The position numbers and the translations under genes were made by a program. DNA of 64,000 nt from an uncultured Bacilli bacterium (lineage in GTDB: Bacteria > Bacillota_I > Bacilli_A > RF39 > UBA660), in the NCBI GenBank assembly GCA_934182615.1, contig CAKPRO010000009.1, positions 5,282 through 69,281 of the forward strand, given 5' to 3'. This document shows, piece by piece, positions 19,936 through 40,830 of the stretch. How positions within the stretch are numbered: position 1 is the stretch's first letter; each line of letters opens with the position of its first letter. The notes beneath the pieces were generated by a model. The model ran no database searches. It was not told the DNA's origin and saw nothing but the letters and a program-made list of their open reading frames with translations.

Positions 19936-20076
19936 TTAATCAAGATCCTTTGGCGTTTCGGATAATTCAGAATTTAATATTTCATAAAATCTTTCTCCAA
20001 ACGGTGTTATGTTATCTTTTTTATTATTGTCTTGAGTATCTTTAAATGCTTTTATTAAGTTTCGTATTAAACACAT
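19936..20076 (-). CDS. Small ORF, 46 aa (MCLIRNLIKAFKDTQDNNKKDN...), paralogue of 29668-29847; may be a remnant
   Basis: Below the ORF-track cutoff; translated by hand. The N-terminal ~21 aa are shared with the second copy. No clear SD here. Confidence 0.3.
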   Translation of the reverse strand: MCLIRNLIKAFKDTQDNNKKDNITPFGERFYEILNSELSETPKDLD

Positions 20077-20122
20077 AGTCTCGTCAACTCTGAATTTTAG
20101 TTACCTATATTAAATTTTTATG

Positions 20123-21775
20123 TCACACTAAACTAATAAACCCTACTTTATCACTACTGTAATCATCATCTAAATCAGCACCAGCATATACAATACCAAC
20201 AACTTCTCTTTTTTTATTTAAAACCGGGCCACCACTCATTCCATGTTTTGGAGAATCTTTAGTTACCCAAAATTCTCTTCCAAGAAAAGTATCTTTACCA
20301 ATTATTTTGGTTTCTATAATTGAAATACTCGTCCTATCAAAGTCTACAAAGCCCGGATAACCAACTAAATATACAGTATCTCCCATCATAGGTTTATTTT
20401 TTGAAATGTTAAAAAACTTACTATTAAAATTAATATTTTTGATACATAAAATATCGGTCTTATAATTATTTTCCTCTATTTTATAATTCAAAAAAAGTTT
20501 ACTCGTTTTATTTTTTAAATAAAAGAAAGGTAAATTTCCATCATCAGGTATAATAGGAAACTGTCTTAAATATTGAGTGTCATTTTCATCATAAATAAAA
20601 TCTTTAATGGTAGTTTTATTTATTAAAACATGAGTTGAAGTATGCAATATATTATTTTTTATCAGAAATGCTGTACCTTGAGAATCTTCAGCTTCTGACT
20701 GTAAAACAAAACATCTATCTTCTGTATACTTTTGAATTTCCAATATACTATCAACATCAAACAGTTCAACGCTAAATAGCTCGTTAAATTCTTTAGCATA
20801 TTTTAAAAACATCTTATCATTATAACCTCTTACCATTTTTAAATAATTTAATTTTCCTTGTAGCAAATTAAACATTTTATATTTTGCATCCTTTTCAGTG
20901 TCAAATTTAAAATTTTTAAAATTCTTTTGAGCTGTTATTATAAAGCCATATTTTTTTATGGAATAAAGCATTGCGCGAACTTCTTTTATATATTTTTTAT
21001 TTAAATTTAATTTAGTATTTACTATTACACCTGTTACCTCTTGACGTAACATTTTTTTTGAAAGTTTAGTTTTTGCATTATTTACTTTAAATCCTGTATT
21101 ATAACCACCATTAATTATTTTGATTAATCTATCAGATAAAACTATTTCACTGGATTGTTTATATGCTATTTGTAAAGGAAATTTATCACTATTTGTAGAT
21201 ATTGTTATATCATCAGCATATCTACTATAAATACATCTATTTTTTTTTGATAAATGTTCTAATTCTTTATCCATTTGATAACATATAATATTAGATATTA
21301 TCGGTGATGTTGGGGCTCCTTGAGGCAATTTACCATCTTTACAAACTATTTTTGCAAGAAAAGTAGCTAAATGCCTATTGAAATTAAAAGGTTTACCCAT
21401 AAACATTCCACGAACTCTACCAAAATGTATTGTATCAAAAAAATTTTCTAAATCAATATTTAATACAAATCTTTTTCCTACATGTTGACTTGCATTAGTT
21501 ACACAACTTCTGTTTTTTATAAAACCATGTTGAACATCTAAAAAATCATAACAATCATATAATAATGTTGCTAATCTTTGTTGTATTACTTTTAATTCAA
21601 TTGTAGGCGCAGAAATTTTTCTTATACCGCCATTTTTTTTAGGAATTTCAAAGCTTATATAATTTTCTTCTTTTACAAATAAAATATAATTTAAATATCC
21701 TTTAGATATATTTAAAATGCTACATAAATCATCAACGCTATCAATCTCTAAAAATATATAATTTTTATGCAACAT
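20123..21775 (-). CDS. Retron-type reverse transcriptase fused to a C-terminal trypsin-like serine protease
   Basis: RT motifs: NASQH (NAxxH), QGAPTSP, RYADDITIS, EVTGVIVN (VTG). C-terminal H/D/S triad candidates: TSTHVL, TDILCIK, GMSGGPV. Start set at the ATG 6 nt after SD gaggtg. Confidence 0.8.
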   Translation of the reverse strand: MLHKNYIFLEIDSVDDLCSILNISKGYLNYILFVKEENYISFEIPKKNGGIRKISAPTIELKVIQQRLATLLYDCYDFLDVQHGFIKNRSCVTNASQHVGKRFVLNIDLENFFDTIHFGRVRGMFMGKPFNFNRHLATFLAKIVCKDGKLPQGAPTSPIISNIICYQMDKELEHLSKKNRCIYSRYADDITISTNSDKFPLQIAYKQSSEIVLSDRLIKIINGGYNTGFKVNNAKTKLSKKMLRQEVTGVIVNTKLNLNKKYIKEVRAMLYSIKKYGFIITAQKNFKNFKFDTEKDAKYKMFNLLQGKLNYLKMVRGYNDKMFLKYAKEFNELFSVELFDVDSILEIQKYTEDRCFVLQSEAEDSQGTAFLIKNNILHTSTHVLINKTTIKDFIYDENDTQYLRQFPIIPDDGNLPFFYLKNKTSKLFLNYKIEENNYKTDILCIKNINFNSKFFNISKNKPMMGDTVYLVGYPGFVDFDRTSISIIETKIIGKDTFLGREFWVTKDSPKHGMSGGPVLNKKREVVGIVYAGADLDDDYSSDKVGFISLV

Positions 21776-21789
21776 ATTCATCACCTCAG

Positions 21790-21937
21790 TGTAAAAAGGA
21801 CTCATACATTGTACTATTATATTAAATAATAAATAGTATAAGGTATATTAAACGAAATAATTAATTTATAATACCTAAATGTAACTAACATTTTTTTAAC
21901 CATGGCGAAACACTCATGAGGTGCAGTCCTTTTTACA
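21790..21937 (-). ncRNA. Candidate retron msr-msd
   Basis: 13-bp perfect inverted repeat, tgtaaaaaggact (21790-21802) / agtcctttttaca (21925-21937). It brackets ~120 nt with several hairpins, and a G follows the 5' arm on the RNA strand. The 3' arm ends 15 nt before the RT start. Confidence 0.45.
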
Positions 21938-22216: not shown

Positions 22217-23266
22217 TTAATCCTTCAAAAATTCTAAATATCTGCTATATTGATCAACTAGTATATTTTTTATGTATTGTTCCATATATTCATAATCAGG
22301 ATTATTGTTTTTATCTACTGGTAACAAAATTTTTTCTTTACTAATTCTAAAATCATTTATTTCTCTATTAAAACTATATTTATTTCCTATTCTTGAAACT
22401 ATGGCTGTTAAAAATAAATAAATATACTTATTATACTTATTATTTTTTAGTGCTGTAATATGATCACTACCAATAAAATCATATTGATGATAAAAGGTGG
22501 CCCCAACTGAACCACTATTAGCGATAGTTAAACAATTATTAAATTTTTTTCCTTCTTTGTTACTAATAAAATTATCTACACCATTATTCATCATTGTTGA
22601 GGAAATGTACGGAATGTTTCCTGCTTTATGATTGCTCTTTTTTAATCTTTTTCCTCTTTCAATAATTGAAAATATACAATTAATATCAAATTCTTTCCAT
22701 TGTTTTTCTGATAATTCAAGGATTTGTTTATATTCAATATTTGATATACTTTTATTACAATATTTTTTCACCAAATCTAATTTATCGTCTAATATTTCAG
22801 CTATACTATTTTCCATGTATTGATAATTTACTGTTTCATCGTCATTTATGGGAAGAATAATTTTCAATTTAGACAAATCCTTACTTGATAACTGATTTCC
22901 ATATGAAAAATTATCTGTATTTGCCATAATTATAACTTTAAAATATTCAGCTAAGTTTTTATTTAAGGTATGTTCTTTTAATATTAATGCATGAACTTTC
23001 ATATCCAATGAAGCCTTATACGGATGATAAAAAACGCTACCCAAAAATGAAACACTTATAAAATTTTCATAAACTCTAAAATTAGGGTTACTTGACTCGC
23101 AATATGAATCAATACCATTATTTGTATCTCTAACTGTTATTCTAGGAATTGATCCTGGCTTTAATTCAGACTTATTTATATAAGCACCTGTTGGTACTTG
23201 ATTTTCAGTTGTTTCAAAAATATCACTTATTCTAAATATTTTCCATTTGATACCATTATCATTCAT
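22217..23266 (-). CDS. Restriction-modification specificity subunit (HsdS/BcgIB-like, two target-recognition domains)
   Basis: Two similar halves, each ending in a conserved helical spacer. Overlaps the upstream methylase gene by 8 nt. Confidence 0.8.
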   Translation of the reverse strand: MNDNGIKWKIFRISDIFETTENQVPTGAYINKSELKPGSIPRITVRDTNNGIDSYCESSNPNFRVYENFISVSFLGSVFYHPYKASLDMKVHALILKEHTLNKNLAEYFKVIIMANTDNFSYGNQLSSKDLSKLKIILPINDDETVNYQYMENSIAEILDDKLDLVKKYCNKSISNIEYKQILELSEKQWKEFDINCIFSIIERGKRLKKSNHKAGNIPYISSTMMNNGVDNFISNKEGKKFNNCLTIANSGSVGATFYHQYDFIGSDHITALKNNKYNKYIYLFLTAIVSRIGNKYSFNREINDFRISKEKILLPVDKNNNPDYEYMEQYIKNILVDQYSRYLEFLKD

Positions 23267-25172
23267 TCTTATCACCTTCGGTCTCAAATAAATATCCTCT
23301 TCCGTGAGTAATCATATTAATTTCAAATGTTAAATAATCAGCTATAGCGTTTTCAAAACAATCATTATTGGGAATTTCATCATTGAAATAAAAGTAAGAA
23401 TGTAACCATTCATCTTCCGCTTCAACAGTCGTTTCTACACAAAATTTAGTTGGAGCTTCTATTTTATCAAACCATACATCCAACAAATGTTGCTTTCTAT
23501 CCTTTGCACGTTCAGTTTCGACAAGCCCTTTGTGTTTTTGAACTTCAAATCCATCGTCTGAAAAATCAATGAATTTACATAATTTGTTTCTATCATGTGG
23601 TATACCTGCGGTAAAAATTGCAATACAAGGATTTGTTCCAACTCCATAAAAAGTATTTGTGTTTAGAGTAATTACTCCCTCTAAAGTGTGATGTAATAAT
23701 ATACTTTCTTTTATATTTTGTTCATTCTTATTTTTACCCGTCATTGTACTTTGAGGTACAATGACAATAACCTTACCGCCAACTACGATGCTGTCTAATA
23801 AATGTTCAACAAAGCTAAGTTCACATTTTTCAGGGCTTATTTTTCCCATTGAGTATGGGGGATTCATCATGCCTACTGTTGCACCCTTTAATTGTACTTT
23901 GCTAGAATCCTGTGCTAAAAAATCATCACATATTAGATTACTTTTCCCATCGCCACGCAAAATCATATTTGTAGTTGCAATAGTAAACATATATGGTTGA
24001 AGTTCAAAGCCATGTAGTTGGTTCCTTTTAATTGCCATCTTTTCCTGATTATTAGATGTTTTTCCAAGCATGTCGTGCATAGCTGAAACAAGGAATCCAG
24101 CCGTTCCACAGCATGGATCCAACACCACATCTGTAGATTTCAACTCTATTAAATCGCAAAATAAATTGCATATATGTTTTGGTGTTAAAACAATTCCCAA
24201 TGATTGCCCATCTCCACCAGAATAACTCATAAATTCTCCATAAAATCTACCCAAATAGTCTTCTGATGTCTGATTATATCTAATAGTTTTATATAGCTTG
24301 TTATATAAATATTCAGTATAAAATTTTAATGGGGTTTTACCTAAAATATCGTTTTTTTCATTCAAAATGACAGTGTCTTTTATTATAGCAAATTGTGATA
24401 AAAGTTTATCTTTCTTTGTTTCTGGAGATACTTGTGATCGATCTAAATTATCTCGTATTGCATTATAAATTTTCAAACCATCTGTTTTTAATTTGTCACC
24501 AATTAAATCGTCAATAGAGAAATTCTTATGTTCTATTTCTTTTAAAGCCAATAATATTCCACTTACAACCAAAGGCTTGTCTTTATCGCTTAAATTACCA
24601 TAATTTCTTAAATATTCATGCAATTCTTTTGCATCTTTTAGTATTTCTTCAGTCGTCTTTTCATCATCTGTGTTTTCCTTTAAAATTTCTCTAACATAAT
24701 ATTCATCAATATTATTCTCATTAAAAGAAATAAAACTTTCTACTTCCGGTAAATCTATAAAATATTCTCTACCATCTAAATATATTGGCTTTATGACGTG
24801 ATGTTTTTCATCTCCGCTAATTCCAAATGCAATAGCTTTTTTGTAATTAGTGTTTTCTAATATGTGATTTGCATAAAAATATGCCCCATTTAAGGCATAA
24901 TCAGTTATTGATGATACGCTTAAATTTAAAATACCATTTTCATCATATTTTGCTTGTTTATCTGTGGAATACTTGTCTTCAATTACTAAAACAAAATCTT
25001 TTACAACCCCTACATATTCTGGAAATCCCACATTACCTGTGCCTTTTTTTGATGCAGTTTTTAATGCATAATCTAATTCTTTAATATTGCTTCCTTGTGC
25101 ATCTAATGTTATTCCAGCATCTTTTAATAAATCATAAACCCACAAATCAGTTCTAACTTCTTTTTTTGCCAT
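23259..25172 (-). CDS. Fused PD-(D/E)xK-like nuclease plus gamma-class N6-adenine methyltransferase (BcgIA-like, type IIB candidate)
   Basis: N-terminus GFPEYVGVVKDFVLVIEDK (E...ExK), AdoMet motif VLDPCCGTAGFL, catalytic MMNPPY. There is no HsdR-like helicase gene anywhere in the window. Confidence 0.7.
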   Translation of the reverse strand: MAKKEVRTDLWVYDLLKDAGITLDAQGSNIKELDYALKTASKKGTGNVGFPEYVGVVKDFVLVIEDKYSTDKQAKYDENGILNLSVSSITDYALNGAYFYANHILENTNYKKAIAFGISGDEKHHVIKPIYLDGREYFIDLPEVESFISFNENNIDEYYVREILKENTDDEKTTEEILKDAKELHEYLRNYGNLSDKDKPLVVSGILLALKEIEHKNFSIDDLIGDKLKTDGLKIYNAIRDNLDRSQVSPETKKDKLLSQFAIIKDTVILNEKNDILGKTPLKFYTEYLYNKLYKTIRYNQTSEDYLGRFYGEFMSYSGGDGQSLGIVLTPKHICNLFCDLIELKSTDVVLDPCCGTAGFLVSAMHDMLGKTSNNQEKMAIKRNQLHGFELQPYMFTIATTNMILRGDGKSNLICDDFLAQDSSKVQLKGATVGMMNPPYSMGKISPEKCELSFVEHLLDSIVVGGKVIVIVPQSTMTGKNKNEQNIKESILLHHTLEGVITLNTNTFYGVGTNPCIAIFTAGIPHDRNKLCKFIDFSDDGFEVQKHKGLVETERAKDRKQHLLDVWFDKIEAPTKFCVETTVEAEDEWLHSYFYFNDEIPNNDCFENAIADYLTFEINMITHGRGYLFETEGDKNE

Positions 25173-25362: not shown

Positions 25363-25520
25363 ATTTTCACCTTCTTTACTGTGATATCTTTATATCTTGA
25401 TATAATGATATCATATTTTTGAAATTTAATCAAGAGATTGGGATTATTCCTATAAAATAATTTTGCATAGAAACACAAATTCAGTGCTGGCCATGCAACA
25501 AACACTATTCTACTAACTAA

Positions 25521-25547
25521 AAACACTACCATTTCTGATAGTGTTAA
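25521..25547 (-). terminator. Hairpin aacacta/tagtgtt with a short U-run (weak terminator)
   Basis: 7-bp stem with a 10-nt loop. Lies between the junction promoter and the RHH gene. Confidence 0.35.
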
Positions 25548-25635
25548 TTACTTTAATAATATCTTTTTAATCTTAATAATCCATTTTTTTCCATAGTTAT
25601 TTGGTTTTAGTTTTTATACATTTGCTTTTTTTGGC

Positions 25636-25864
25636 CACCACCTGAAGTTATTATATCATAGTTTTTTTCCATATATGACTATATGATTATTTTTCTAATT
25701 CTATTTATATAATACTATTTCTCTATACTAAAATAATATTAGTATATAGTTATTGCTTATATATAATAGATGTAATAGGCATATTGTTATTAGACCCTAG
25801 GCTAATAACAACACTAATAAGACTTACATAGTAAGGCTTATAGTGAACATAATAAAATATATAT
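25636..25864 (-). repeat. Junction element J2: hairpin pair + extended -10 promoter + SD (direct repeat of 29853-30079)
   Basis: Aligns end to end with J3; the first 32 nt and last 45 nt are identical. TGaTATAAT on the minus strand (25650-25658). Hairpins at 25786-25809 and 25812-25855. Confidence 0.85.
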
Positions 25865-25866
25865 AA

Positions 25867-26170
25867 TTATTTATTATTAACTATCTCATCTAATTTACTT
25901 CTTATAATACTTTCTTCTCTACTACCATTAGTAGTTAATCTTATTAATGGTATATTATATTTAGATAGAATATCATTCTTTAATATATCTCTTTCTTTTT
26001 GTTTATTATCTTCTTTATGATATTTATATCCATCTACTTCTACCGCTAATAATGGTATTTTACTTATTTTATTATATATTAAGAAATCTATATGAGTATT
26101 ATGGTGAGAAGCATATTTTCTTTCTTCTTCTGTTAATAATGTCTTATCTTTTATTAATATATTTAAAATT
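25867..26170 (-). pseudogene. Start-less DUF2726-like fragment (about 100 codons)
   Basis: Hand translation gives ...HIDFLIYNKISKIPLLAVEVDGYKYHKEDNKQKERDILKNDILSKYNIPLIRL..., which matches the DUF2726 pattern. No ATG, GTG or TTG in frame. Begins right at the stop of the upstream gene. Confidence 0.5.
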
Positions 26171-26713
26171 TTATTTATGTTTTCTTTTATACAAGTATAC
26201 TCCTCCTGATATTACTCCTATACCTAAGATTGTGTTTAATAAACTATTACTATCCTTTTCATCTTCAATATTATTATCTTCAATATTTTTACTAGTGGAT
26301 ATAATGCAACTTCCATCATCAACCTCTGCTTCTGGATCATAGTTGTCTGCTGATGGATTTTTACATCCTAGTACATAATATTCACAGGTTCCGTCATCTT
26401 TATTTGCTGATGAATTATAGTTCTTTGCTGTTTCATCTGTGCATCCATATGTATAATAGATACAACTTCCATCATCTCTATTAGCACTAGAATTATAATT
26501 ACTTGCATTTTTGTCTGTGCACCCATAAATATAGGTAACTGTTGGTGTACATGTACAACTAGGACTTAAAGTACCATCATTACAAACCAATCTTCCAGAA
26601 CTACTACAGCCACTAACACCACCATGATGAGAACAACACCCTCTCGTTGCACTAACTTTTAATGGCATTAATAGTATAATGCACACTAAAATTACTATTA
26701 TTTTTTTCTTCAT
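26171..26713 (-). CDS. Secreted or membrane-anchored Cys-rich repeat protein
   Basis: Signal peptide, GCCSHHGGVSGC motif, 3x GC(T/K)D..A.NY(N/D)..A..DDG(S/T)C repeats, and a C-terminal TM segment plus KRKHK. Confidence 0.7.
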   Translation of the reverse strand: MKKKIIVILVCIILLMPLKVSATRGCCSHHGGVSGCSSSGRLVCNDGTLSPSCTCTPTVTYIYGCTDKNASNYNSSANRDDGSCIYYTYGCTDETAKNYNSSANKDDGTCEYYVLGCKNPSADNYDPEAEVDDGSCIISTSKNIEDNNIEDEKDSNSLLNTILGIGVISGGVYLYKRKHK

Positions 26714-26733
26714 TAAATATCACCTTACCACAA

Positions 26734-26779
26734 AAAAAGACGCAGCACAAAATCTATTAAATAGACCTGTACTAGCGTC
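26734..26779 (-). terminator. 46-nt hairpin terminator, copy 1 (near-identical to 29557-29603)
   Basis: aaaaagacgcagcacaaaatctattaaatagacctgtactagcgtc. On the minus strand, gacgc...gcgtc is followed by a run of seven T. Confidence 0.7.
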
Positions 26780-26875
26780 CTTATTTAATTATTTTTAATT
26801 CTTTTAATATTTTACCATGTTTTTGTTTACATTATCTTATTCTTTCTTTATTAATTTAAAATTTTGAATATTTTA

Positions 26876-27145
26876 TTATAGTTCATTAATTCCAGTAACT
26901 ATTTTGTTAACGACTTCAACTATACTATCATATACGACTTTTGAAATTTTATCATTAGAGCTATCAAAATCGGTAGACTTATTTATTTTAATAATATCAC
27001 CTTTTTTAAATTCCTTAAACAAAGCCTCATATAGTTTTTTACCATCCACATTTAGCGTACTTTTAGGAATTTCAAATATCTCCACATTTTCGCTTTTAAT
27101 AATATATTTGTCATTGTTATTATACATCGTATATATTTTTGTCAT
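26876..27145 (-). CDS. Small protein (89 aa) translationally overlapping the PHP-ATPase gene
   Basis: SD aaaggtgg before the ATG at 27145. Overlaps the upstream stop by 26 nt. No motif recognised. Confidence 0.5.
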   Translation of the reverse strand: MTKIYTMYNNNDKYIIKSENVEIFEIPKSTLNVDGKKLYEALFKEFKKGDIIKINKSTDFDSSNDKISKVVYDSIVEVVNKIVTGINEL

Positions 27146-29522
27146 ATCTTTTCCACCTTTCATTAATTGAAGCTATTCCACCTTCTATGTTATCGGCAAC
27201 AATTTTCAAAACATTACATTCTTCATCTTTATATTCAAGTGCACCATTTTGAATATATATTTTATCTTTTTCATCTTTACCCAAGAATATTACATTATCA
27301 ACATCTAAATTTACGATAAATTGTGGATTATGCGTTATCATAATAATTTGTCTATTCTTGCTCATATCATTAAAATCATTTAAAATATTTTTCTTTATGG
27401 ATGGTTGTGACACGTCATCTTCAGGTTGATCAATTATATATATTCTCTTATCATCAGTTTGGTTAGATATTAAATCAAAATAGATTCTAGAATTTAAACC
27501 TGATGATAATTCTTTTGTTACATCTTTATCTTTATCTTTGTTCCATTCATTTATTGCATTCTCAACAGAAAAAATATCGTTTATTTTATTATCTAATTCA
27601 TTTTTTAGATTTAATAACTTGTTATCGTAAGAAATTTCTTTACTTCTATTATTAAATTTATCTGGAATTGTATTTGGATCAATTGAATTTATATCTTTTA
27701 TACTTTTTCCTAATATTTCTTTAATTAAGTATATTAAATGATCATTTGATATTTCTTTTACCTTAGTTTTTGCGACGAATCTGTATTTTCCAACTATATT
27801 AAAGGATGTTGGTATTTTTTCTTCTTTGATATTTGGCTTATATTTAGTTTCTTTCCTACTCTTAATATAATAATTTATGATGTTTTCCGAAAAAATCTCC
27901 TTATTATTTTCATAATTTGATATTTTTTCTGTTTCATCCGTTTCTATTCTTTTTAGTTCTTTACCTTTTTTAGTGAACTCAGTATTGATTATATTGATTT
28001 TAGATATTTCAAGCAAATTTTGTTTATTTATATCGTTATATTTTGATATTAAAATTTTATAGTGGTCAACGCTATTTTTAATATACTCTTTATCTCCCTT
28101 CTCAAAGCAGTCATTATTCATTACTTCCAATAGCAATGAATTGATTGATTCAAGTTTTTCAATTATTTTATTTACTTCTTTTATTTTCAAATTAATATTG
28201 TTAATAATAGTATTAGTTATATTTTTAAAGCTTAGTGACTTTGAGTTTGAATCAATGATACATATACTAAAATCTATTATCTTATTGAATGCACTGGTTT
28301 TCTCTTCTTTATTTTTTAAAACTGAAATATAACTTTCAATTTCAGATTTATATTTTTTAATATATTTATTTACTGAAGGGGCAACAGGAAAAAAACTATT
28401 CAAGAAATTATCACTATTAAAGTTTTTATTTTCAAACATCTTTCTTATAGAGCCTTGTCCATTAAATTCAGAAATATTTGATTTTGGTATATGTGAATTG
28501 ATTTTTATATTTTTCTCATTCAAATACTCCTCATAACTATTTTTTATTTTATTATCATTTAAATAATTATAATCAGTTAACTTGTGAATTAATAGCGACT
28601 TTCCTATGGAATTATCACCTATAATAACATTGATTCCTTTAGAAAGTTTTATATTATGTTTATTTCCATTTATTTCTATATCTATACTATCCAAATATTT
28701 ATCTGTAACAGGGAAAAAGTTATTAACATAATTTATTCTTTTAGTGTTTGTCATAGCCATGGCTAAACCACGAAAGGTTGGTAAACATTTTAAATATGTA
28801 AATGAAAAATCATCGTTTTCCTCGGGATAATCGGCCCAAATATGGCAATCAGAACCTGTTATAAACTTCAATGTAATATCTTTATATTTTTCCCTGTTTC
28901 TTTCAATATAGTTTTTATTAAATATTTCGTTTATCTTTTTTTTAAATTCAAAGGCCTCAAAAAAATCCAAAAAGACCAATTCATCAAATTTTTCCTTTCC
29001 TAAACTCATGACATCATGATTTCTCGGCTCCTTGCTAGATAGGGTTGCTTTTTGATGGGCTATCATCACTACATTTAAATTAATTTCTTTTAAAATATCA
29101 AGATATTTACTTTCAGAAAATGAATTTAATTTGTTATTATCATACAATGGTTTTCCTTTATTTTTATCAAATATTTTACTTTGTATTTTACTTATTGCTT
29201 CTTCATCTGAATCATCAAATATTGTAATAACATGCAAAACTTTTTTATCATATGCCACCGAAAATTCAACTGCAGGAAAAACCTTTTTAATACTTCCTTT
29301 ATTCTCTTCATTCTTTAATCTTTTATATATATCAAAATCAAAGTTATCATGATCTGATATAGAGCACATATTTATTTTTCTTTCATTTAATTTTTCTATT
29401 AATAAATTTATGTTATCTATTGTCGATAAATCTACACGATCATCACTTTCTTTATGTTTTGACGCAAAAGAATGAATATGAAAATCCACTTTATTGCCTG
29501 TTTCAACTATCTTTTCAATCAT
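27120..29522 (-). CDS. PHP-domain phosphoesterase fused to an ABC/OLD-type ATPase (Ppl-like defence candidate)
   Basis: N-terminus DFHIHSFAS...SISDHDNF...AVEF (PHP). Walker A IIGDNSIGKS, Walker B IYIIDQPEDDVSQ, and IMITHNPQF. Confidence 0.65.
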   Translation of the reverse strand: MIEKIVETGNKVDFHIHSFASKHKESDDRVDLSTIDNINLLIEKLNERKINMCSISDHDNFDFDIYKRLKNEENKGSIKKVFPAVEFSVAYDKKVLHVITIFDDSDEEAISKIQSKIFDKNKGKPLYDNNKLNSFSESKYLDILKEINLNVVMIAHQKATLSSKEPRNHDVMSLGKEKFDELVFLDFFEAFEFKKKINEIFNKNYIERNREKYKDITLKFITGSDCHIWADYPEENDDFSFTYLKCLPTFRGLAMAMTNTKRINYVNNFFPVTDKYLDSIDIEINGNKHNIKLSKGINVIIGDNSIGKSLLIHKLTDYNYLNDNKIKNSYEEYLNEKNIKINSHIPKSNISEFNGQGSIRKMFENKNFNSDNFLNSFFPVAPSVNKYIKKYKSEIESYISVLKNKEEKTSAFNKIIDFSICIIDSNSKSLSFKNITNTIINNINLKIKEVNKIIEKLESINSLLLEVMNNDCFEKGDKEYIKNSVDHYKILISKYNDINKQNLLEISKINIINTEFTKKGKELKRIETDETEKISNYENNKEIFSENIINYYIKSRKETKYKPNIKEEKIPTSFNIVGKYRFVAKTKVKEISNDHLIYLIKEILGKSIKDINSIDPNTIPDKFNNRSKEISYDNKLLNLKNELDNKINDIFSVENAINEWNKDKDKDVTKELSSGLNSRIYFDLISNQTDDKRIYIIDQPEDDVSQPSIKKNILNDFNDMSKNRQIIMITHNPQFIVNLDVDNVIFLGKDEKDKIYIQNGALEYKDEECNVLKIVADNIEGGIASINERWKRYDKNIYDV

Positions 29523-29556: not shown

Positions 29557-29603
29557 AAAAAGACGCAGCACAAAAATCTATTAAATAGACCTGTACTAGC
29601 GTC
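29557..29603 (-). terminator. 46-nt hairpin terminator, copy 2
   Basis: Differs from copy 1 by one extra A. Confidence 0.7.
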
Positions 29604-29667
29604 TTTCTTTAACTAATTTAAGTATATCAAATTATTTTTATTTAATCAATATATTTTGACAATTTTC

Positions 29668-29847
29668 TTATTCATCATCCTCAGAATAATAGTCATCATC
29701 TTCTAGTTCTTCTTCTTCAAAGTTAAATGAATCATACTTCTTTTCTTTTACTAATTCTTTTTGCCAATCTTCTAAATCATTATTATCTTTTTTATTATCA
29801 TCTTCTGTATCAGTAAATGCTTTTATTAAGTTCCATATTAAACACAT
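29668..29847 (-). CDS. Small acidic ORF, 59 aa (MCLIWNLIKAFTDTEDDNKKDN...EEEELEDDDYYSEDDE)
   Basis: Below the ORF-track cutoff. SD aggtggtg lies 7 nt upstream, and the junction promoter is directly upstream. Confidence 0.4.
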   Translation of the reverse strand: MCLIWNLIKAFTDTEDDNKKDNNDLEDWQKELVKEKKYDSFNFEEEELEDDDYYSEDDE

Positions 29848-29852
29848 AGTCT

Positions 29853-30079
29853 CACCACCTGAAGTTATTATATCATAGTTTTTTGTTATATATGACTATA
29901 TGCTTATTTTTCTACTCTTATTTATATAATTACTTCTCTATACTAAAATAATATTAGTATATATATCTACTGCTTATATATAATAGGTATCTTGGATACA
30001 TTTAATTAAGACAAGTTTACTTGGCTTAATTAAACACTAATAAGACTTACATAGTAAGGCTTATAGTGAACATAATAAA
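29853..30079 (-). repeat. Junction element J3 (complete copy): hairpin pair + TGnTATAAT promoter + SD
   Basis: See J2. Extended -10 at 29867-29875 (minus strand). Hairpins at 30001-30034 and 30035-30068. Confidence 0.85.
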
Positions 30080-30125
30080 GATAATATATAGGTATATTAA
30101 AACTAAGACTTGATATCTTAGTTTG

Positions 30126-30929
30126 TTATTTAGTTAATGTTAATGTTTTTATTTTAAATTCTTTAGTATCATAACCCCATGGATTAGATACTAATCTTAT
30201 ATTATTTATTATTATATCTTCTTCTTTATGATCATGACCATATATCCATACTGGTGATTTATATTCTTTAACTTCTGTATAGTAACAAGAGTTATTACCC
30301 CTACTATTACTTTTGTTTCTAAATGGTGGTACATGTGTTATTATTAAATCTATATTATTTGGTAAGTTATTATACCAAGATATGCTATCGTTATGTAGTT
30401 TTTGTATTTTATCTTTCTTAGATAATTCTGATAAGATAAATCTTGAATCATTCTGCATAGGATAGTTATATAGTTTATCTACTAATGTTACTGGTTTATA
30501 CCAAAGGGTATCTCCCGCTAATAAGAAGGTATTATAGGTATATAGTCCTTTAGTATTATTCGTTTTATCTAGTATGATTATATCGTTATTATCTTTAAAT
30601 ATTTCATTTAATCTATATACTTTATTCATACTATTATAGTTATATTCTTTAGCCATAGGATCAGTATAGATATATTTTATTACTGGTATATAGTATTCAT
30701 GATTACCTAGGACAAATATTACTTTTTTATAGTATTTTGAACATGAATATAATAGTTCACTCACTCTATTTATATCTTCATCGATATCTCCCGCTACTAC
30801 AAGGATATCTCCTTTTACTTGCATACTTATTTTATCTTGAACTAATTTATCTATTTTGGTTATGCTTTCATTTTTACTTATGTAGTGAGTTAAGTGTAAA
30901 TCAGATACGTAGTCAATGTTTAATTCCAT
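30126..30929 (-). CDS. Calcineurin-like metallophosphoesterase
   Basis: SDLHL, VVAGDI, LGNHEYY, THVPP and YGHDH motifs in the canonical order. Confidence 0.8.
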   Translation of the reverse strand: MELNIDYVSDLHLTHYISKNESITKIDKLVQDKISMQVKGDILVVAGDIDEDINRVSELLYSCSKYYKKVIFVLGNHEYYIPVIKYIYTDPMAKEYNYNSMNKVYRLNEIFKDNNDIIILDKTNNTKGLYTYNTFLLAGDTLWYKPVTLVDKLYNYPMQNDSRFILSELSKKDKIQKLHNDSISWYNNLPNNIDLIITHVPPFRNKSNSRGNNSCYYTEVKEYKSPVWIYGHDHKEEDIIINNIRLVSNPWGYDTKEFKIKTLTLTK

Positions 30930-31032: not shown

Positions 31033-31782
31033 TTATTTATTATTACATTTCCTTATAAATTCTTTTTCGTGTTCTTTTAAATAGTTATAACTTCCTTTAA
31101 TAGCGGTATCTATACTATTATTTTTATATATACTTGTTATTTTATCTAGTAAATTTATATTATCTATTTCTACATTATAAAAGATATCATAGCATTTAAA
31201 CTTATGTTTATATATTTTTTGTATGCCGTCACTATTTAGTATTGGGTCTATGACTATTTCACTTAAGTACCATAACAAACTTGGGCTATCAAAATCTTCA
31301 TACTTCCAATTTGGATATATTTCTTTACATTTCTCAAAGAAAAGGAAATGACATAATTCATGCATACAGGTATCTATTAAATCTTCTTTATTTTTCTTAT
31401 GAATATCAAAGGCTTTTTCTTTAATGTATCTAGGACATACTGGTATTAGTCCTATTCCTACTGATATTTCTTTATATTCTTTTGGCCACTTTATATTAAA
31501 GTAATTACTTATTTCTAACATATATTTATCATTATATTCATTCCAGATAGTGGTATATTCTTCTCTCAAGTTATTATTTTCTTTTATAAAGTTATTATAT
31601 CTATCTTGAATTATGTCTTTAATATTATCTTCTTTGGTAAGTCTTTTTAATTCTGGATATAGGAATAATGTTCCTTCTTTTACTGATAATATGTTATCAG
31701 TATCTTTAAGTGTCCATGATAGTATGTCAGATGTTTCTTCAAGAGTTAAATATTTAAATTTTAATTTTGGTATGTTATTCAT
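31033..31782 (-). CDS. HExxH-motif protein of unknown function
   Basis: CMHELCHFLFFEK. Confidence 0.5.
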   Translation of the reverse strand: MNNIPKLKFKYLTLEETSDILSWTLKDTDNILSVKEGTLFLYPELKRLTKEDNIKDIIQDRYNNFIKENNNLREEYTTIWNEYNDKYMLEISNYFNIKWPKEYKEISVGIGLIPVCPRYIKEKAFDIHKKNKEDLIDTCMHELCHFLFFEKCKEIYPNWKYEDFDSPSLLWYLSEIVIDPILNSDGIQKIYKHKFKCYDIFYNVEIDNINLLDKITSIYKNNSIDTAIKGSYNYLKEHEKEFIRKCNNK

Positions 31783-31803
31783 ATTTCCTCCTATTTAATT
31801 ATA

Positions 31804-33405
31804 TCATATTTTGTTTACTTTATCACGATAATCATCATAATTACCAATATATCTAGTGATGTTTTTATTTTTTATTTCTATTATACTAGTAGCTATTTTA
31901 TTTATGAAATATCTATCATGAGATACAAATAATATAGTACCAGTAAACTCCTTTAGTGACTCTTCAAGCATTTCTCTTGTATCAATATCAATGTGATTAG
32001 TGGGTTCATCTAGAATTAAGAAGTTATAAGAATCTTGAATTAGACAGAATATTTTTAATCTTACTTTTTCTCCTCCAGATAAGTATTTTATTTTTTTATG
32101 AATGTTTTCTCCTGCAAAGAGATATTTGAATAAAGCACTTCTTAAATATTGTTCTGGTCCAATGAAATATTTTCTGGCTTCTTCTAGTACTGATAAATTA
32201 ATATCTTCAAACTCGATCTCTTGAGGAATATAACCTATCTTGATATTACTTCCTAGTTTTATACTATTATTTCCTTTTAATATTTCTTTGATTAGAGTTG
32301 ATTTACCGACTCCATTATCTCCGACTAGACATAGTCTATCTTGATATTTAATACTTAGATTAAGATTATTAAATATTTCTTTAGTACCATAAGATAGATT
32401 TAGATTATTTATTGTTAATACATCTTTTCCTGACCTACTAGCGGTATCAAAAGTTATATTTAGTTTTTTCTTGTCTTCTGGTTTATCTAACTTTTCTAGT
32501 TTTTCTAATCTTTTTTCGATATTGGCAGCTCTTCTAAAGAATATTTCTCCACCACTTGGTCCACAAAGCCTGCCATATTCTTTTAATCTTTTGATACTAT
32601 TTTCCATAGCGGTTATTTGTTTTTGTTGGTCTTTATAGTTTTTTAATTCTAGTAATAGTCTATTTTCACTTTCTTTAATATAGTAACTATAATTGCCATG
32701 ATATACTTCTATTCCTCTTTTGGTTAATAAATATACTTTGTTTATGACATTATCCATGAAATAGCGGTCATGTGATACTAGTATTATTGTACCTTTATAG
32801 TTCTTTAATGTTTTTTCTAACCAAATCATTTTATTTATATCTAAATGGTTAGTGGGTTCATCTAATAATAAGACATCTGGTTCTTGTAATAATAATCTTA
32901 TTAGAGATATGATGGTTTTTTCTCCTCCAGATAGGGTATTGAAATTTCTATTTAATATTTCTTCAGTTATATTAAATACTGGTAGTATTTTTTGAATCTT
33001 TGTTTCGTATTCATATCCTCCTAGCGAGATAAACTTCTCTTGCAGATTCATATACTTTGTTATTACTTTATAATCTTCAGTTAAGAGTTTATCTTCATAT
33101 CTTTCTAATTTTTCTTTTAGTTCTATTATTTCTTTAAAGGCACTATTTATATAGTCTTTTACTATTATATCTTTTTTTTCAGGTATTTGACTTAAATAGC
33201 CTATACTTATATTATTTCTTATTGAAAGGGAACCGGAATCTATACTTTCTTGGCCTGCGATTATTTTTAGTATAGTACTCTTTCCACTTCCATTTGTTCC
33301 AATTAAACCTACTTTTTCTCCTTTTTGTACTGTTACGTCTATATTATTTAATACTAAGTCAAAACCAAATGACTTACATACTTTACTTATATTTATATCT
33401 ATCAT
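31804..33405 (-). CDS. ABC-F family ATPase (two ABC cassettes, no TM domain); ribosome-protection type candidate
   Basis: Walker A GTNGSGKST and GDNGVGKST, signatures LSGGEK (twice), and a ~80-aa charged interdomain linker. Start at the ATG after SD gggagga. Confidence 0.85.
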   Translation of the reverse strand: MIDINISKVCKSFGFDLVLNNIDVTVQKGEKVGLIGTNGSGKSTILKIIAGQESIDSGSLSIRNNISIGYLSQIPEKKDIIVKDYINSAFKEIIELKEKLERYEDKLLTEDYKVITKYMNLQEKFISLGGYEYETKIQKILPVFNITEEILNRNFNTLSGGEKTIISLIRLLLQEPDVLLLDEPTNHLDINKMIWLEKTLKNYKGTIILVSHDRYFMDNVINKVYLLTKRGIEVYHGNYSYYIKESENRLLLELKNYKDQQKQITAMENSIKRLKEYGRLCGPSGGEIFFRRAANIEKRLEKLEKLDKPEDKKKLNITFDTASRSGKDVLTINNLNLSYGTKEIFNNLNLSIKYQDRLCLVGDNGVGKSTLIKEILKGNNSIKLGSNIKIGYIPQEIEFEDINLSVLEEARKYFIGPEQYLRSALFKYLFAGENIHKKIKYLSGGEKVRLKIFCLIQDSYNFLILDEPTNHIDIDTREMLEESLKEFTGTILFVSHDRYFINKIATSIIEIKNKNITRYIGNYDDYRDKVNKI

Positions 33406-33418
33406 AATATTCCTCCCA

Positions 33419-33590
33419 TCAAAAAAAGTTATATGAATGTATTGCATCCATATAACTTCTATTTATATATATAGATGCAGGCACGACAAAAACTCACACC
33501 CACATCTCATTTTTTTTACTTTAATTTTTGATGAGATAAAGGTGTGATATTTATAGTAAACATGATTACATTACCTACATATTTATACAT
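33419..33590 (-). promoter_or_regulatory. Leader-peptide attenuator of the ABC-F gene
   Basis: Terminator aagttatatg (33426-33435) / catataactt (33449-33458) plus a seven-T run, just before the SD. Alternative hairpin gcatc.atata / tatat.gatgc (33444-33480). Upstream hairpin 33495-33546 overlaps the leader ORF stop. Confidence 0.65.
33516..33590 (-). CDS. Leader peptide, 24 aa (MYKYVGNVIMFTINITPLSHQKLK)
   Basis: SD GGAGGG lies 7 nt upstream. The stop sits in the loop of the first leader hairpin. Confidence 0.45.
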   Translation of the reverse strand: MYKYVGNVIMFTINITPLSHQKLK

Positions 33591-33839
33591 AAATATCCCT
33601 CCATTTATAATATATTATAGTTTTTTACTTTTGTCAATTGTTTTTACACTATAAGCCATTTGTCTTGCTAGTGTTATTTGGAGTCTTGGGTCTCCAAATA
33701 AGTATTAATTATACTTATTATATATAAGTATGAAATATATACTTAAAGTAGTTTATTATTGGTATTTTTTTTGTTATTTTGAGTATAATAATAATGCAAT
33801 ATACTTGACTTTTTATAATAGTTATAGTATCATTGTATT

Positions 33840-33954
33840 ACCGGAGAGAAATCTCGTCAGGTCGATAGCTCAATGTCGATTTTATTAAATTAAGTGTATG
33901 TTAAGTACACCGCTTGAGTTGGGGAGAGACTACTAGATAGTCTCTTTTCTTTTT
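33840..33954 (+). ncRNA. Candidate ~110-nt small RNA convergent with the DUF3800 gene
   Basis: TTGACT-17 nt-TATCAT (33805-33833), then agagacta/tagtctct hairpin plus tttcttttt (33925-33954). No plus-strand ORF downstream. Confidence 0.25.
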
Positions 33955-34681
33955 ATGGAAATAATAGTTTATGATCGATAATATCAATATCAGAATCAAT
34001 ATTTGATAATGCTCTTCTTCTGGTAGTGCCTGCTATTAAATCTGCTGCTTGCACTAAGTAACTCTTACCTGAATCTTGATATGTTAATCTTATTTCTAAT
34101 TTTCCATATAATATATTTTTATATTTTATATCATAATTAAAATTAGATATTCCATGTAGTAATTCTTCAGTTAGGCCATCTTTTAAATTATAATAACCAT
34201 TACTTTTTGTAGATTGTTCATCTATATTTATTATTAATCTCACATTTTTATGTGGGTTTATTTTTTTATCTTTTATTAATTCTTCTATGGTACTTTTAAT
34301 TAGTCTTCTTATTGTGTAATCTATGTATCTTCCTTTTGATGCTTTATTATTTATAATATGATTATATACTTTTGTATTATTTATTACTAGGGCAATAGTA
34401 TAATATTTACTTATGTAGTTCATAAGTCTTCTTTTATGACCTTTCTTGATATTTGTATTTTTTATTTCTTTACATTTTTTAGTACATTCTCCTTTTGTTT
34501 GTCCGCAGTAGGAACATTTTATCTCATTTATTATTTGGCGATACTGAGTTATAAATTTATCTTTTTCTTGTTTTGATAAAAAGACTATTCCTGCATATAC
34601 TGATACTTTTTCTTTTTTTGTTAATTTACCTGAATCATCTAAATTTATATATATTTCTTGATATTCTTCTTTTTTGTTCAT
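33953..34681 (-). CDS. DUF3800-family protein
   Basis: N-terminal IYINLDDSGKL and C-terminal LVQAADLIAG match the DUF3800 signature as I recall it. Start after SD gaagggag. Confidence 0.65.
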   Translation of the reverse strand: MNKKEEYQEIYINLDDSGKLTKKEKVSVYAGIVFLSKQEKDKFITQYRQIINEIKCSYCGQTKGECTKKCKEIKNTNIKKGHKRRLMNYISKYYTIALVINNTKVYNHIINNKASKGRYIDYTIRRLIKSTIEELIKDKKINPHKNVRLIINIDEQSTKSNGYYNLKDGLTEELLHGISNFNYDIKYKNILYGKLEIRLTYQDSGKSYLVQAADLIAGTTRRRALSNIDSDIDIIDHKLLFP

Positions 34682-34830
34682 ATAAGTGCTCCCTTCAATT
34701 GTTTTAATGTTTATTATAGCATGTACTTTTAATATTGTCATTAGGTTTTAAGTAATTTTGTTTATCAACAATATATGTGGATATAAGAAAAACTATAGAC
34801 ATAAATCTATAGCTTATATAAATACTTTTA

Positions 34831-39630: not shown

Positions 39631-39736
39631 AGTTTCTCCTTTGCTACTTTATTTAATTATATCATATTTTGTCGTATTTGTTTGTAAAAAAATGATATTT
39701 TTATTTTTAATGGGAAAATTATATTAGGTGTTAGAT

Positions 39737-40174
39737 ATGAATTTTCAAAAACTAATAGAATTAAGAGAAGACTTTAATCTTAAACAAAAGGATATTGCTA
39801 AGCTATTAAACATTACTCAGCAGACTTATTCACTATGGGAAAATGGCAGTAAAATTATTCCTTTAAAGCATTTGAATTCTTTATGTAACTATTATAATGT
39901 TAGTATGGATTATATGCTGGGGCTTTCTAATAAGAATAGTTTTAATAATGGTAAATATAATATTGATAAAAAGATTATTGGTAGGAGATTAAAAGAATTT
40001 AGAAAAGAAAAAAATATTACCCAAGAAGAACTAGCTAGTACTCTTAATACTACTCATTCAACGATTAGTGCTTATGAAAGTGGTAAAACTACTATTCTTA
40101 CAGCTTTTGCTTATGAGATATGTAAAAGATATAACATTTCTATGGACTATTTATGTGGTAGAATACTTATTTGA
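39737..40174 (+). CDS. XRE-family regulator with two HTH_3 domains
   Basis: LKQKDIAKLLNITQQTYSLWENG and ITQEELASTLNTTHSTISAYESG. Confidence 0.85.
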   Translation: MNFQKLIELREDFNLKQKDIAKLLNITQQTYSLWENGSKIIPLKHLNSLCNYYNVSMDYMLGLSNKNSFNNGKYNIDKKIIGRRLKEFRKEKNITQEELASTLNTTHSTISAYESGKTTILTAFAYEICKRYNISMDYLCGRILI

Positions 40175-40200
40175 TATTTTTTATATTATATATACTTTTA

Positions 40201-40277
40201 TTTCAGAGACATTTGGCTCTGAAATTTTTTTGAAAGACATTTGGCTTTCAAAACCTCGAACAACATAGTGTGAGAGG
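40201..40277 (+). repeat. Hairpin pair + GAACAAC..AGTGTGAGAGG box (copy g)
   Basis: tttcagAGACatttGGCTctgaaa (40201-40224) and tttgaaAGACatttGGCTttcaaa (40229-40252). Box at 40256-40277. Confidence 0.75.
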
Positions 40278-40338
40278 AATATAATTTTTTATTATATTTT
40301 TATTATTTTGGTTCATAATATTTTTGAGGAGGATATTT

Positions 40339-40776
40339 ATGAAAGAAAATTATGAATTAATGGAACATATTTATAAAGATGCTGAAATGGCTGTTTATAC
40401 TTTGACTACTCTTACTAATGATTTAAAAGATAAAGATAATAAAATAAAGAAGACTCTTGAAGATATTCTTAAAGAATATGAGTCTTGGAAAAAGAAGAGT
40501 ATGAAGTATTTAAAGAAAGGAAAAGCAGAAATTACTGATAGTGGAGTTATGGCCAAAATGATGGCTAAGATGGGTATTAAGAAAGAAGTTATTAATGATA
40601 ATAGTGATTCTTCGATTGCTAAGATGATTATTAAGGGTGTATCAACAGGGTCTGTGGATATGGAAAAGAAAATTAAGGCTTATGATAAAGATGTTGATAA
40701 GAGTGATTTGAAGATAGCGAAAGAATTTTTGAAATTTCAAGAAAAGACTATAGATGAACTTAAAGAATATCTATAG
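40339..40776 (+). CDS. Hypothetical helical protein (145 aa)
   Basis: SD tgaggagg before the ATG. Lys/Glu-rich helical sequence. Confidence 0.55.
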   Translation: MKENYELMEHIYKDAEMAVYTLTTLTNDLKDKDNKIKKTLEDILKEYESWKKKSMKYLKKGKAEITDSGVMAKMMAKMGIKKEVINDNSDSSIAKMIIKGVSTGSVDMEKKIKAYDKDVDKSDLKIAKEFLKFQEKTIDELKEYL

Positions 40777-40830
40777 TTTTTTTAATATTTTTATATACAA
40801 TTATTTATTTATGTGGTAAAATTATAATAG

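Follow-up and report, generated by a model that had tools for sequence, protein, structure and literature searches.

A two-gene, Ppl-related PHP–ATPase family with a small partner of predicted novel fold in a defence island of an uncultured Bacilli bacterium

The locus considered here lies in a stretch of 64 000 nucleotides (nt) from an uncultured Bacilli bacterium (assembly GCA_934182615.1, contig CAKPRO010000009.1, positions 5,282 to 69,281; 'the window' below means this whole stretch). It carries on its minus strand a gene for a protein of 800 amino acids (aa), in which a PHP phosphoesterase is fused to an ABC-type ATPase, followed by an overlapping gene for an 89-aa protein. Ppl is a validated single-gene PHP–ATPase defence system (PMC12904381; PMC11482910), and has been reported to be a single-stranded DNA (ssDNA) 3′–5′ exonuclease that is inhibited by nucleoside triphosphates (NTPs) and requires 3′-OH ends (PMC12904381). 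It is among the less understood single-gene defences, and TrlF and Spaf_1101 are annotation names only. The question raised by the locus is whether it encodes Ppl next to an incidental small reading frame or a two-gene system of its own. The latter was suggested by a preliminary description of the sequence, which noted a Ppl-like domain composition and proposed an obligate two-gene unit that may be a distinct variant. The analysis described here answers in favour of a two-gene, Ppl-related PHP–ATPase family whose small partner has a predicted fold not seen before. That the gene pair is real, and that it belongs to this family, is near certain. A search of the literature on two-gene PHP/SMC defence systems found no description of it, although it may have been named elsewhere.

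The PHP domain, coiled region and ATPase motifs ascribed to the large protein by the preliminary description are all present, the coiled region being a predicted helical arm (Table 1). The PHP motifs are DFHIHS (aa 13–18), SDHD (aa 56–59), E86, H97, AHQK (aa 155–158) and SDCH (aa 224–227), and the ATPase motifs are Walker A GDNSIGKS (aa 302–309), Q356 of the Q-loop, the signature LSSGLNS (aa 672–678), Walker B IIDQPEDD (aa 696–703) and the H-loop ITHNP (aa 729–733). The C-lobe closes with a family-specific C-terminal extension, at the end of which stands an RWKRY(D/E) motif. In an alignment of 36 relatives with 23–69% identity to the window protein, the PHP metal ligands listed in Table 1 are invariant or at least 90% conserved, and G302, G307-K308-S309, Q356, G675, D698-Q-P-E-D702 and T730-H731 of the ATPase are invariant or nearly so, whereas the stretch of about 300 residues that separates the Q-loop from the signature motif is poorly conserved, with an alignment consensus that is mostly 'x'. 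From this residue content, both enzymes look catalytically competent.

The AlphaFold2 (AF2) model of the large protein, calculated with the alignment as input, has a predicted local distance difference test score (pLDDT) of 87.8 and a predicted TM score (pTM) of 0.71, and consists of an N-terminal α/β PHP domain, an ABC head and an arm of four long helices (aa 385–416, 437–468, 475–524 and 529–555). In a Foldseek search of the PDB, the ATPase part matched the heads of Smc, cohesin SMC3, RecN, Rad50, JetC and AriA, and the N-terminus matched the Bifidobacterium PHP phosphoesterase (PDB entries 3o0f and 3e0f; E = 1.1e-5 for 3o0f) and the PHP domain of RNase AM (PDB entry 7ug9; E = 3.2e-5, TM score of 0.57 on the target). 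The His/Asp/Glu ligands of the trinuclear site, together with the matches to 3o0f and 7ug9, place the N-terminal domain in the PHP superfamily, and the five ATPase motifs, with a helical insertion between the N- and C-lobes, identify an ABC ATPase of the SMC/Rad50/RecN type. No Pfam PHP model matched the protein at E ≤ 0.01, so it is a divergent member of this superfamily, and a scan of the protein against the whole of Pfam gave nothing significant; NCBIfam gave weak matches of the PHP domain to RNase RNM and pAp phosphatase. A sequence search of the PDB with the single 800-aa protein found no match, and a profile search found the N-lobes of Rad50, SMC and AriA and otherwise generic ABC/SMC heads and one PHP enzyme; neither search found a Ppl-like solved structure. 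The ATPase had been described as ABC/OLD-type, of which the ABC part stands; judged from the model, it is closest to the SMC/Rad50/RecN/AriA heads and not specifically to OLD. An OLD or Gabija GajA-type nuclease could be ruled out, as the Toprim domain is absent and the nuclease domain is PHP.

An exhaustive HMMER search with the large protein retrieved 1756 representative proteins at E ≤ 0.001 and 232 clusters (50% identity) at E < 1e-30, which are mostly full-length (770–830 aa). The best NCBIfam match was TrlF (NF045780), with 130 bits versus a cut-off of 350 over aa 10–316. Spaf_1101 (NF045781) reached 58.4 bits versus a cut-off of 475 in an end-to-end match (aa 40–795 on profile positions 96–834 of 836), and Ppl (NF042955) 32.9 bits versus a cut-off of 1000 over aa 695–792 only. 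The PADLOC profiles, proposed as a check in the preliminary description, gave a comparable picture: the Ppl model (PDLC02208) matched the same C-terminal stretch only (E = 2.1e-6), the ATPase matches were to the defence ATPases GajA, PtuA, AriA and mad3, and GajA and PtuA matched the ATPase lobes only (GajA at aa 285–313 and 674–755). The candidate system PDC-M49 was ruled out, since PDC-M49A matched merely aa 10–122 (profile positions 3–101 of 681, E = 1.7e-5) and the small protein had no PADLOC match. The profile behaviour of the window protein is that of its relatives: all 36 aligned members match the TrlF and Spaf_1101 profiles at E ≤ 0.001 and 35 of the 36 match Ppl, with best E-values of 6e-59 for TrlF and 7e-22 for Ppl, the latter match still being partial. 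By hhalign, the C-lobe with its extension is common to a TrlF protein (probability 99.7) and a Spaf_1101 protein (probability 97.6). On this profile evidence the large protein is best placed in the same PHP–ATPase superfamily as Ppl, as a separate branch that is captured by no curated model, with TrlF and not Ppl as the nearest named family; canonical Ppl membership was ruled out, the Ppl profile staying far under its cut-off and covering the C-terminal part only. As Pfam, NCBIfam and PADLOC v2 all miss the family at trusted thresholds, defence inventories of the Bacillota and Coriobacteriia that carry it probably overlook it.

The preliminary description of a Ppl-like but distinct variant is thus borne out on both counts. 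As in Ppl of Escherichia coli, one polypeptide joins an N-terminal PHP domain to an ABC-type ATPase that has a long insertion, the distinctive C-terminal lobe has the order DQPEDD, THN, VVN.D, GALEY, GG and R..Y, the setting is a defence island and the likely nuclease effector would be gated by nucleotide binding. However, Ppl is a single gene (PMC11482910, PMC12904381), whereas the present branch always adds an overlapping partner, and it is found in Bacillota and Coriobacteriia sampled from gut and mouth, not in Enterobacteria as Ppl is. TrlF shares the overall architecture, the profile match across the PHP domain and Walker A, and the C-lobe, but the TrlF example protein (875–891 aa) has neither an overlapping small ORF (open reading frame) nor a match to the partner. 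The TrlF plasmid example adjoins an Abi family protein, and no paper describing TrlF was found in the literature searched. Spaf_1101, which occurs on Bacillota plasmids, shares the weak end-to-end match and the C-lobe, but its Enterococcus plasmid example lacks a downstream partner gene.

A wider comparison can be made with PARIS AriA–AriB, Gabija GajA–GajB, Septu/retron PtuA–PtuB, Lamassu, Wadjet and SbcCD/Mre11–Rad50, in all of which an ABC/SMC head with a helical arm is coupled to a nuclease; AriA, GajA, PtuA, Rad50, RecN and JetC were recovered here as structural or profile matches, and the logic of an ATPase sensor gating a nuclease would be the same. In these partner-bearing ATPase systems, however, the nuclease is Toprim, HNH, Mre11 or Cap4, whereas here it is PHP and is fused N-terminally, and AriB, GajB, PtuB, LmuC and the kleisins have no similarity to the non-enzymatic 89-aa partner.

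The small gene is tied to the large gene by its position and by its conservation. The longest ORF that can be drawn mechanically encodes 95 aa from an ATG at 27163, but the ATG at 27145, which is preceded by a Shine–Dalgarno (SD) sequence, gives the 89 aa and 26-nt overlap of the preliminary description, and gene callers likewise give 89 aa for this strain in ten public assemblies. In a clade with 76% identity the small gene is also present and overlaps in the same way. A hidden Markov model (HMM) of the partner was built and scanned over all fetched loci, and matched immediately downstream of the large gene in every family locus from GTDB genomes with downstream DNA, in six of the seven loci on viral contigs and in nearly all of the 43 metagenome loci; where no match was found, the contig ended, the gene was frameshifted, or the locus was one of two that are very distant or fragmentary. 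In the reverse direction, the distant partner clusters P0275, P0303 and P0324 each lie directly after an ATPase of 770–803 aa. Contigs carrying the neighbouring 180-aa gene were also fetched in search of a site without the pair, and the same arrangement was found in all ten places, so that none could serve as an empty site for comparison. One TrlF and one Spaf_1101 plasmid locus were examined, and neither has such an ORF or a match to the partner HMM.

The geometry of the overlap is equally constant. Among 45 distinct pairs, 41 overlap by 17–32 nt in a constant relative frame, and in these 41 the partner ATG is formed from the invariant Tyr codon of the large protein and the next codon, which begins with G (YE/YD/YG), with a purine-rich SD sequence at the same position supplied by the preceding conserved basic and Trp codons; the other four are two Coriobacteriia-type loci with a gap of 13–19 nt and two broken genes. 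The invariant residues R789 and Y793 of the enzyme thereby fall on the translation signals of the partner. Both the protein sequence of the small ORF, present in about 60 loci, and the overlap geometry are conserved down to about 23–25% identity of the large protein. The distance matrices of the large and small proteins are correlated (Pearson 0.93), and the mean identity over pairs is 24% for the partner versus 38% for the enzyme, so that the partner evolves faster. Translation of the partner is coupled to that of the large gene, and the pairing defines the branch and is obligate, as the preliminary description had suggested for this one locus. A strictly two-gene sister branch of 232 clusters offers a clean genetic handle on the control of this class of nuclease–ATPases.

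A very distant PHP–ATPase of 858 aa (23% identity) was also encountered on a predicted viral contig (locus L050, 5905–8785), and a 100-aa ORF of partner-like size begins 2 nt after its stop codon; homology of this ORF to the partner family could not be detected. A layout of two genes may thus be more widespread than the family as defined here.

At 90% identity, the partner family falls into 55 clusters, each of which is unnamed or 'hypothetical', and no match was found in Pfam, NCBIfam or PADLOC, or in the PDB by sequence-profile search. The AF2 model (pLDDT 93.6) is a compact β1-β2-β3-α1-β4-α2 fold with a long C-terminal helix (aa 66–88), for which neither the PDB (best E = 0.28) nor a library of viral structures (best E = 0.096) gave a significant match; it is a confidently predicted new small fold. 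The conserved residues are of the core type only (Y14, I26, Y39 and I86), without catalytic motifs. Most homologues are acidic, with isoelectric points (pI) of 4.2–5.4, net charges down to −20 and, in many, an acidic tail, a character that speaks for a subunit that binds protein and against a repressor that binds DNA; the partner in the window is itself of near-neutral charge. An origin of the partner as a domain split off from the longer single-gene relatives was ruled out by hhalign against TrlF (probability 0.04).

Six loci (L009, L010, L061, L062, L063 and L080) encode a fused partner, in which a linker and a Peptidase_S24 domain come after the partner domain (Pfam E-values of 5e-18 to 6e-24); the window's own partner lacks this domain. 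Two of these loci come from Neglectibacter caecimuris (L009) and from Acutalibacteraceae (L010), and additional S24 fusions were found by the metagenome scan, whereas a word-based protein search with the N-domain of an S24-fused partner returned only a fragment. All six fusions retain the C-A-G of the linker (a cleavage site of the Ala-Gly type), the catalytic Ser in SMEP and the catalytic Lys in KR. Their large proteins form one subclade, with 48–57% mutual identity and 37–46% identity to the rest, which points to a single old fusion, maintained ever since. In LexA, CI and UmuD, RecA*–ssDNA stimulates self-cleavage by the S24 domain, parting the N-terminal module from the dimerisation domain. 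The fusions have the C-terminal Peptidase_S24 domain, linker, Ser and Lys of these regulators, but the N-terminal module is the acidic partner domain instead of a helix-turn-helix (HTH). By analogy, separation of the partner from the S24 domain may be the regulatory event in the fused subclade, which would fit a brake or trigger module, and these natural fusions give a specific and testable prediction on the trigger.

The region of the window is a defence island. PADLOC identified a type XI retron, a Type IIG restriction–modification (R-M) system and a HerA helicase around the pair (Table 1), in agreement with the embedding among defence genes noted in the preliminary description. In other loci, the neighbours include HsdR, Eco57I-like and Dcm methylases, McrB-like AAA_5, Fic, AbiE, SocA/Panacea, NERD, DUF3800, T5orf172, serine and tyrosine recombinases, integrases and transposases, and the pair is also found on predicted viral contigs. 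An identical 797-aa protein occurs with a constant upstream flank and six different downstream flanks, as expected at the edge of an integration hotspot. The distribution is patchy across Bacillota and Coriobacteriia, and the family is common in those of the human gut and mouth; a tblastn search of phage and plasmid records found no close member and only C-lobe matches to other families. The branch is horizontally mobile, and the variable, island-like contexts of the homologues contradict the housekeeping role that the preliminary description had named as the outcome that would speak against it.

The signals around the pair are consistent with a self-contained operon. A 47-nt element occurs as a direct repeat on either side of the pair, its two copies sharing an identical core of 31 nt, for which 0 chance matches are expected; the leader copy sits between a TG-extended −10-like box and the SD sequence of the large gene, whereas the other copy forms the operon terminator. 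A scan for consensus promoters found 49 sites where 44.6 are expected, which overall does not exceed chance in DNA so rich in AT. Although its genomic surroundings differ, the 76%-identity clade (L001) has a leader hairpin homologous to that of the window (−24 kcal/mol, z −6.2), and a TGATATAAT box stands at a similarly short distance, roughly 12–19 nt, upstream of it; the differences between the two inner stems lie on both sides and retain pairing. A crude fixed-window scan found no comparable leader in most other clades, but the same scan also missed the hairpin of L001; the hairpin of L010 is unrelated, which leaves two clades with the leader. The hairpin may attenuate the expression of a potentially toxic nuclease, as suggested by the two or three sequences at hand.

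The reading that we favour, with a probability of roughly 0.55, is that ATP gates the large protein, an SMC-like clamp or sensor whose effector is a PHP nuclease, and that a stoichiometric small subunit controls it, the whole serving in defence against phages or mobile elements. The operon would run from the promoter-proximal hairpin leader through the 800-aa gene and the translationally coupled 89-aa gene to the terminator. The large protein would dimerise by ATP-driven engagement of its SMC/Rad50-like heads and would clamp or sense nucleic acid, probably ends or unusual structures, and the N-terminal PHP domain with its trinuclear metal site would be the effector, acting exonucleolytically, by analogy with Ppl, on nucleic acid of the phage and possibly of the host. 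The partner, made in a fixed ratio to the large protein, would be a stoichiometric regulatory subunit that restrains the nuclease or sets its trigger. In the S24-fused subclade, the RecA*–ssDNA that forms when the cell is infected or its DNA damaged would sever the partner from its dimerisation domain and so license the nuclease. Of the parts of this reading, a role in defence is probable, and action of the partner as a brake is a tentative suggestion that falls somewhat short of even odds. The structure of the genes, their catalytic residues, the classes of fold, the obligate pairing and its overlap, the S24 fusions and the island contexts are established, whereas anti-phage function (from context only), the substrate and polarity of the nuclease, the binding of the partner and its inhibiting or activating effect are all points that we infer.

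Several points weigh against the regulated defence nuclease. It is the genomic context alone that speaks for defence by members of the branch, and none of the PADLOC v2 models recognises them. A partner that is coupled downstream would at best be equimolar to the large protein, an unusual ratio for a labile inhibitor of the antitoxin type, and this arrangement fits a structural subunit equally well. The S24 fusions represent a single event in one subclade, and an S24 domain can be a mere dimeriser. Finally, the modelled PHP domain is structurally nearest to the RNase AM/pAp-phosphatase branch, so that RNA or nucleotides may be the substrates. A bolder version of the mechanism, possible but less likely than not, is that the nuclease is made safe by a small subunit of unseen fold, the removal or remodelling of which is the activating step, wired to RecA* through S24 in one subclade. 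If true, the pair would represent a class of defence module of its own, with a nuclease licensed by DNA damage or replication intermediates, mechanistically distinct from the NTP-gated single-gene Ppl.

The most serious alternative, although it is on balance doubtful, is that the partner is a required structural or activating subunit, either a mini-kleisin-like clasp on the heads or neck or a sensor or adaptor for a phage cue, without which the nuclease is inactive. SMC-like ATPases commonly depend on small accessory subunits, the structural neighbours found here include the Smc–ScpA, cohesin–RAD21, JetABC and AriA–AriB complexes, and downstream translational coupling favours 1:1 assembly. The C-terminal helix of the partner could pack on the coiled-coil neck, and the faster evolution of the partner is of the kind often seen in sensors. 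However, the predicted fold is unlike kleisins, KITE proteins or any PDB chain, the single-gene relatives (Ppl according to the literature, and the TrlF and Spaf_1101 loci examined) manage without such a subunit, and a self-cleaving S24 fusion is easier to understand as the removal of a brake than as the destruction of an essential subunit. The position of the partner domain in the fusions, which is that normally taken by the DNA-binding module in repressors of the S24 family, would also suit a DNA-binding autorepressor, with the nuclease gene being SOS-derepressed in the S24-fused forms, and the structured leader upstream of the operon could be read in the same way. This is improbable in view of the strongly acidic character of most partners and because neither a signature of the HTH, ribbon-helix-helix (RHH) or AbrB type nor a resemblance of the predicted fold to DNA-binding domains was found; in addition, the conserved overlap with the stop region of the enzyme suggests co-assembly over transcriptional control, and the leader hairpin is confined to two clades.

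The combination of a two-gene nuclease with a small acidic protein, on prophage-like or integrative elements and beside other toxin–antitoxin (TA) or Abi genes, also recalls an addiction module that stabilises mobile DNA and has no specific anti-phage role. We consider this very unlikely, as a large enzyme encoded first, a small gene coupled downstream and a large regulated ATPase are atypical of type II TA systems, the recurrent neighbours are R-M and other defence systems, and the closest characterised relative, Ppl, is a defence system. Least credible of all is that the small ORF is incidental to an ordinary Ppl orthologue or to a housekeeping repair or RNA-processing enzyme resembling SbcCD or RNase AM. 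The domain composition is that of Ppl, and weak profile matches to Ppl, Rad50 and RNase RNM exist, but this explanation is contradicted by a score of 33 bits against the Ppl cut-off of 1000, by the conservation of the small ORF as a confidently folding protein, and by variable contexts and a patchy distribution that includes viral contigs.

Table 1. Positions of the PHP–ATPase pair, its signals and neighbouring features in the window
Feature	Position	Strand	Evidence or remark
PHP phosphoesterase + SMC/Rad50-like ABC ATPase fusion gene, 800 aa	27120..29522	-	Uninterrupted ORF, alignment, AF2, Foldseek
PHP domain, aa 1–275	28698..29522	-	Ligands D13/H15/H17, D57/H58, E86, H97, H156, D225/H227
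ATPase head N-lobe, aa 276–380	28383..28697	-	Walker A GDNSIGKS 28596-28619; Q-loop Q356
Helical arm + middle subdomain, aa 381–660	27543..28382	-	Between Q-loop and signature motif; poorly conserved
ATPase head C-lobe, aa 661–800	27123..27542	-	Signature 27489-27509; Walker B 27414-27437; H-loop 27324-27338
89-aa partner gene	26876..27145	-	ATG within Y793-D794 codons of large gene; 26-nt overlap
Partner SD sequence AGGTGG	27153..27158	-	Made by R789-W790 codons of large gene
Promoter-like TTGATT-N17-(TG)TATACT	29621..29649	-	Putative, from consensus scan; just upstream of leader hairpin
Terminator-like hairpin + U-run, 5′ leader	29557..29608	-	−24.1 kcal/mol, z −5.3; ends about 35 nt before ATG
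Second hairpin + U-run copy, operon terminator	26731..26787	-	−23.3 kcal/mol, z −5.9; 31-nt exact repeat
Type XI retron reverse transcriptase (RT)-protease	20123-21805	-	PADLOC RT-Protease_XI, E = 7e-157; RT fused to trypsin-like protease
Type IIG R-M: 637-aa restriction endonuclease-methyltransferase + separate specificity subunit	22217-25172	-	PADLOC E = 6e-172 (full length), 9e-51
180-aa secreted/membrane-anchored Cys-rich protein	26171-26713	-	Three tandem 'GCTD..A.NYN..A..DDG.C' repeats
59-aa extremely acidic ORF	29668-29847	-	MCLIWNLIKAFTDTEDDNKKDN...EDDDYYSEDDE; just upstream of operon
Calcineurin-like metallophosphoesterase	30126-30929	-	PADLOC PDC-S10, E = 3e-11
249-aa protein	31033-31782	-	Only sub-threshold YbeY-like match
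ABC-F protein	31804-33447	-	NCBIfam 'ribosomal protection-like ABC-F family protein', 443 bits vs 380
DUF3800-I RNA	33833-33957	+	Rfam 65.6 bits vs gathering score 44.2
DUF3800 protein gene	33953-34741	-	Adjoins DUF3800-I RNA
Defence-type HerA helicase	40831-42603	+	PADLOC E = 6e-108

The neighbouring genes of the window include further candidate systems. The Type IIG R-M operon, which we read as a BcgI-like two-subunit system, is preceded by a 69-aa ORF. The HerA gene is the last of a plus-strand group (39728–42603) with a double-HTH regulator and a 150-aa protein without a family match, and this group is a possible HerA-based system whose small effector is as yet unrecognised. The metallophosphoesterase and 249-aa protein genes lie immediately upstream of the PHP–ATPase operon, and the 180-aa Cys-rich gene, which has only weak N-terminal matches of the PRK10040 type, lies directly downstream of its terminator. 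A DUF3800 gene also stands directly downstream of the PHP–ATPase pair in the unrelated loci L024–L027. The ABC-F gene is missing from some otherwise identical strain contigs (L032 and L033) and is therefore a variable cargo gene.

The 59-aa acidic ORF has no family match, but its first 26 codons and SD sequence recur with 86% identity at 20012–20089 on the minus strand, downstream of the retron RT gene. The window also has two copies of an intergenic block of about 250–480 nt, with 80–91% identity (25400–25876 and 29616–30099), one copy being upstream of the 59-aa ORF that precedes the PHP–ATPase operon and the other upstream of the Type IIG R-M operon; the block ends in ...CTATGATATAATAACTTCAGGTGGTG, which is readable as a −10 box and SD sequence. 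A weaker third copy of its promoter-like 36-mer (31793–31828) precedes the gene for the 249-aa protein. The duplicated blocks have the look of modules that recur within the island at cassette boundaries or as promoters.

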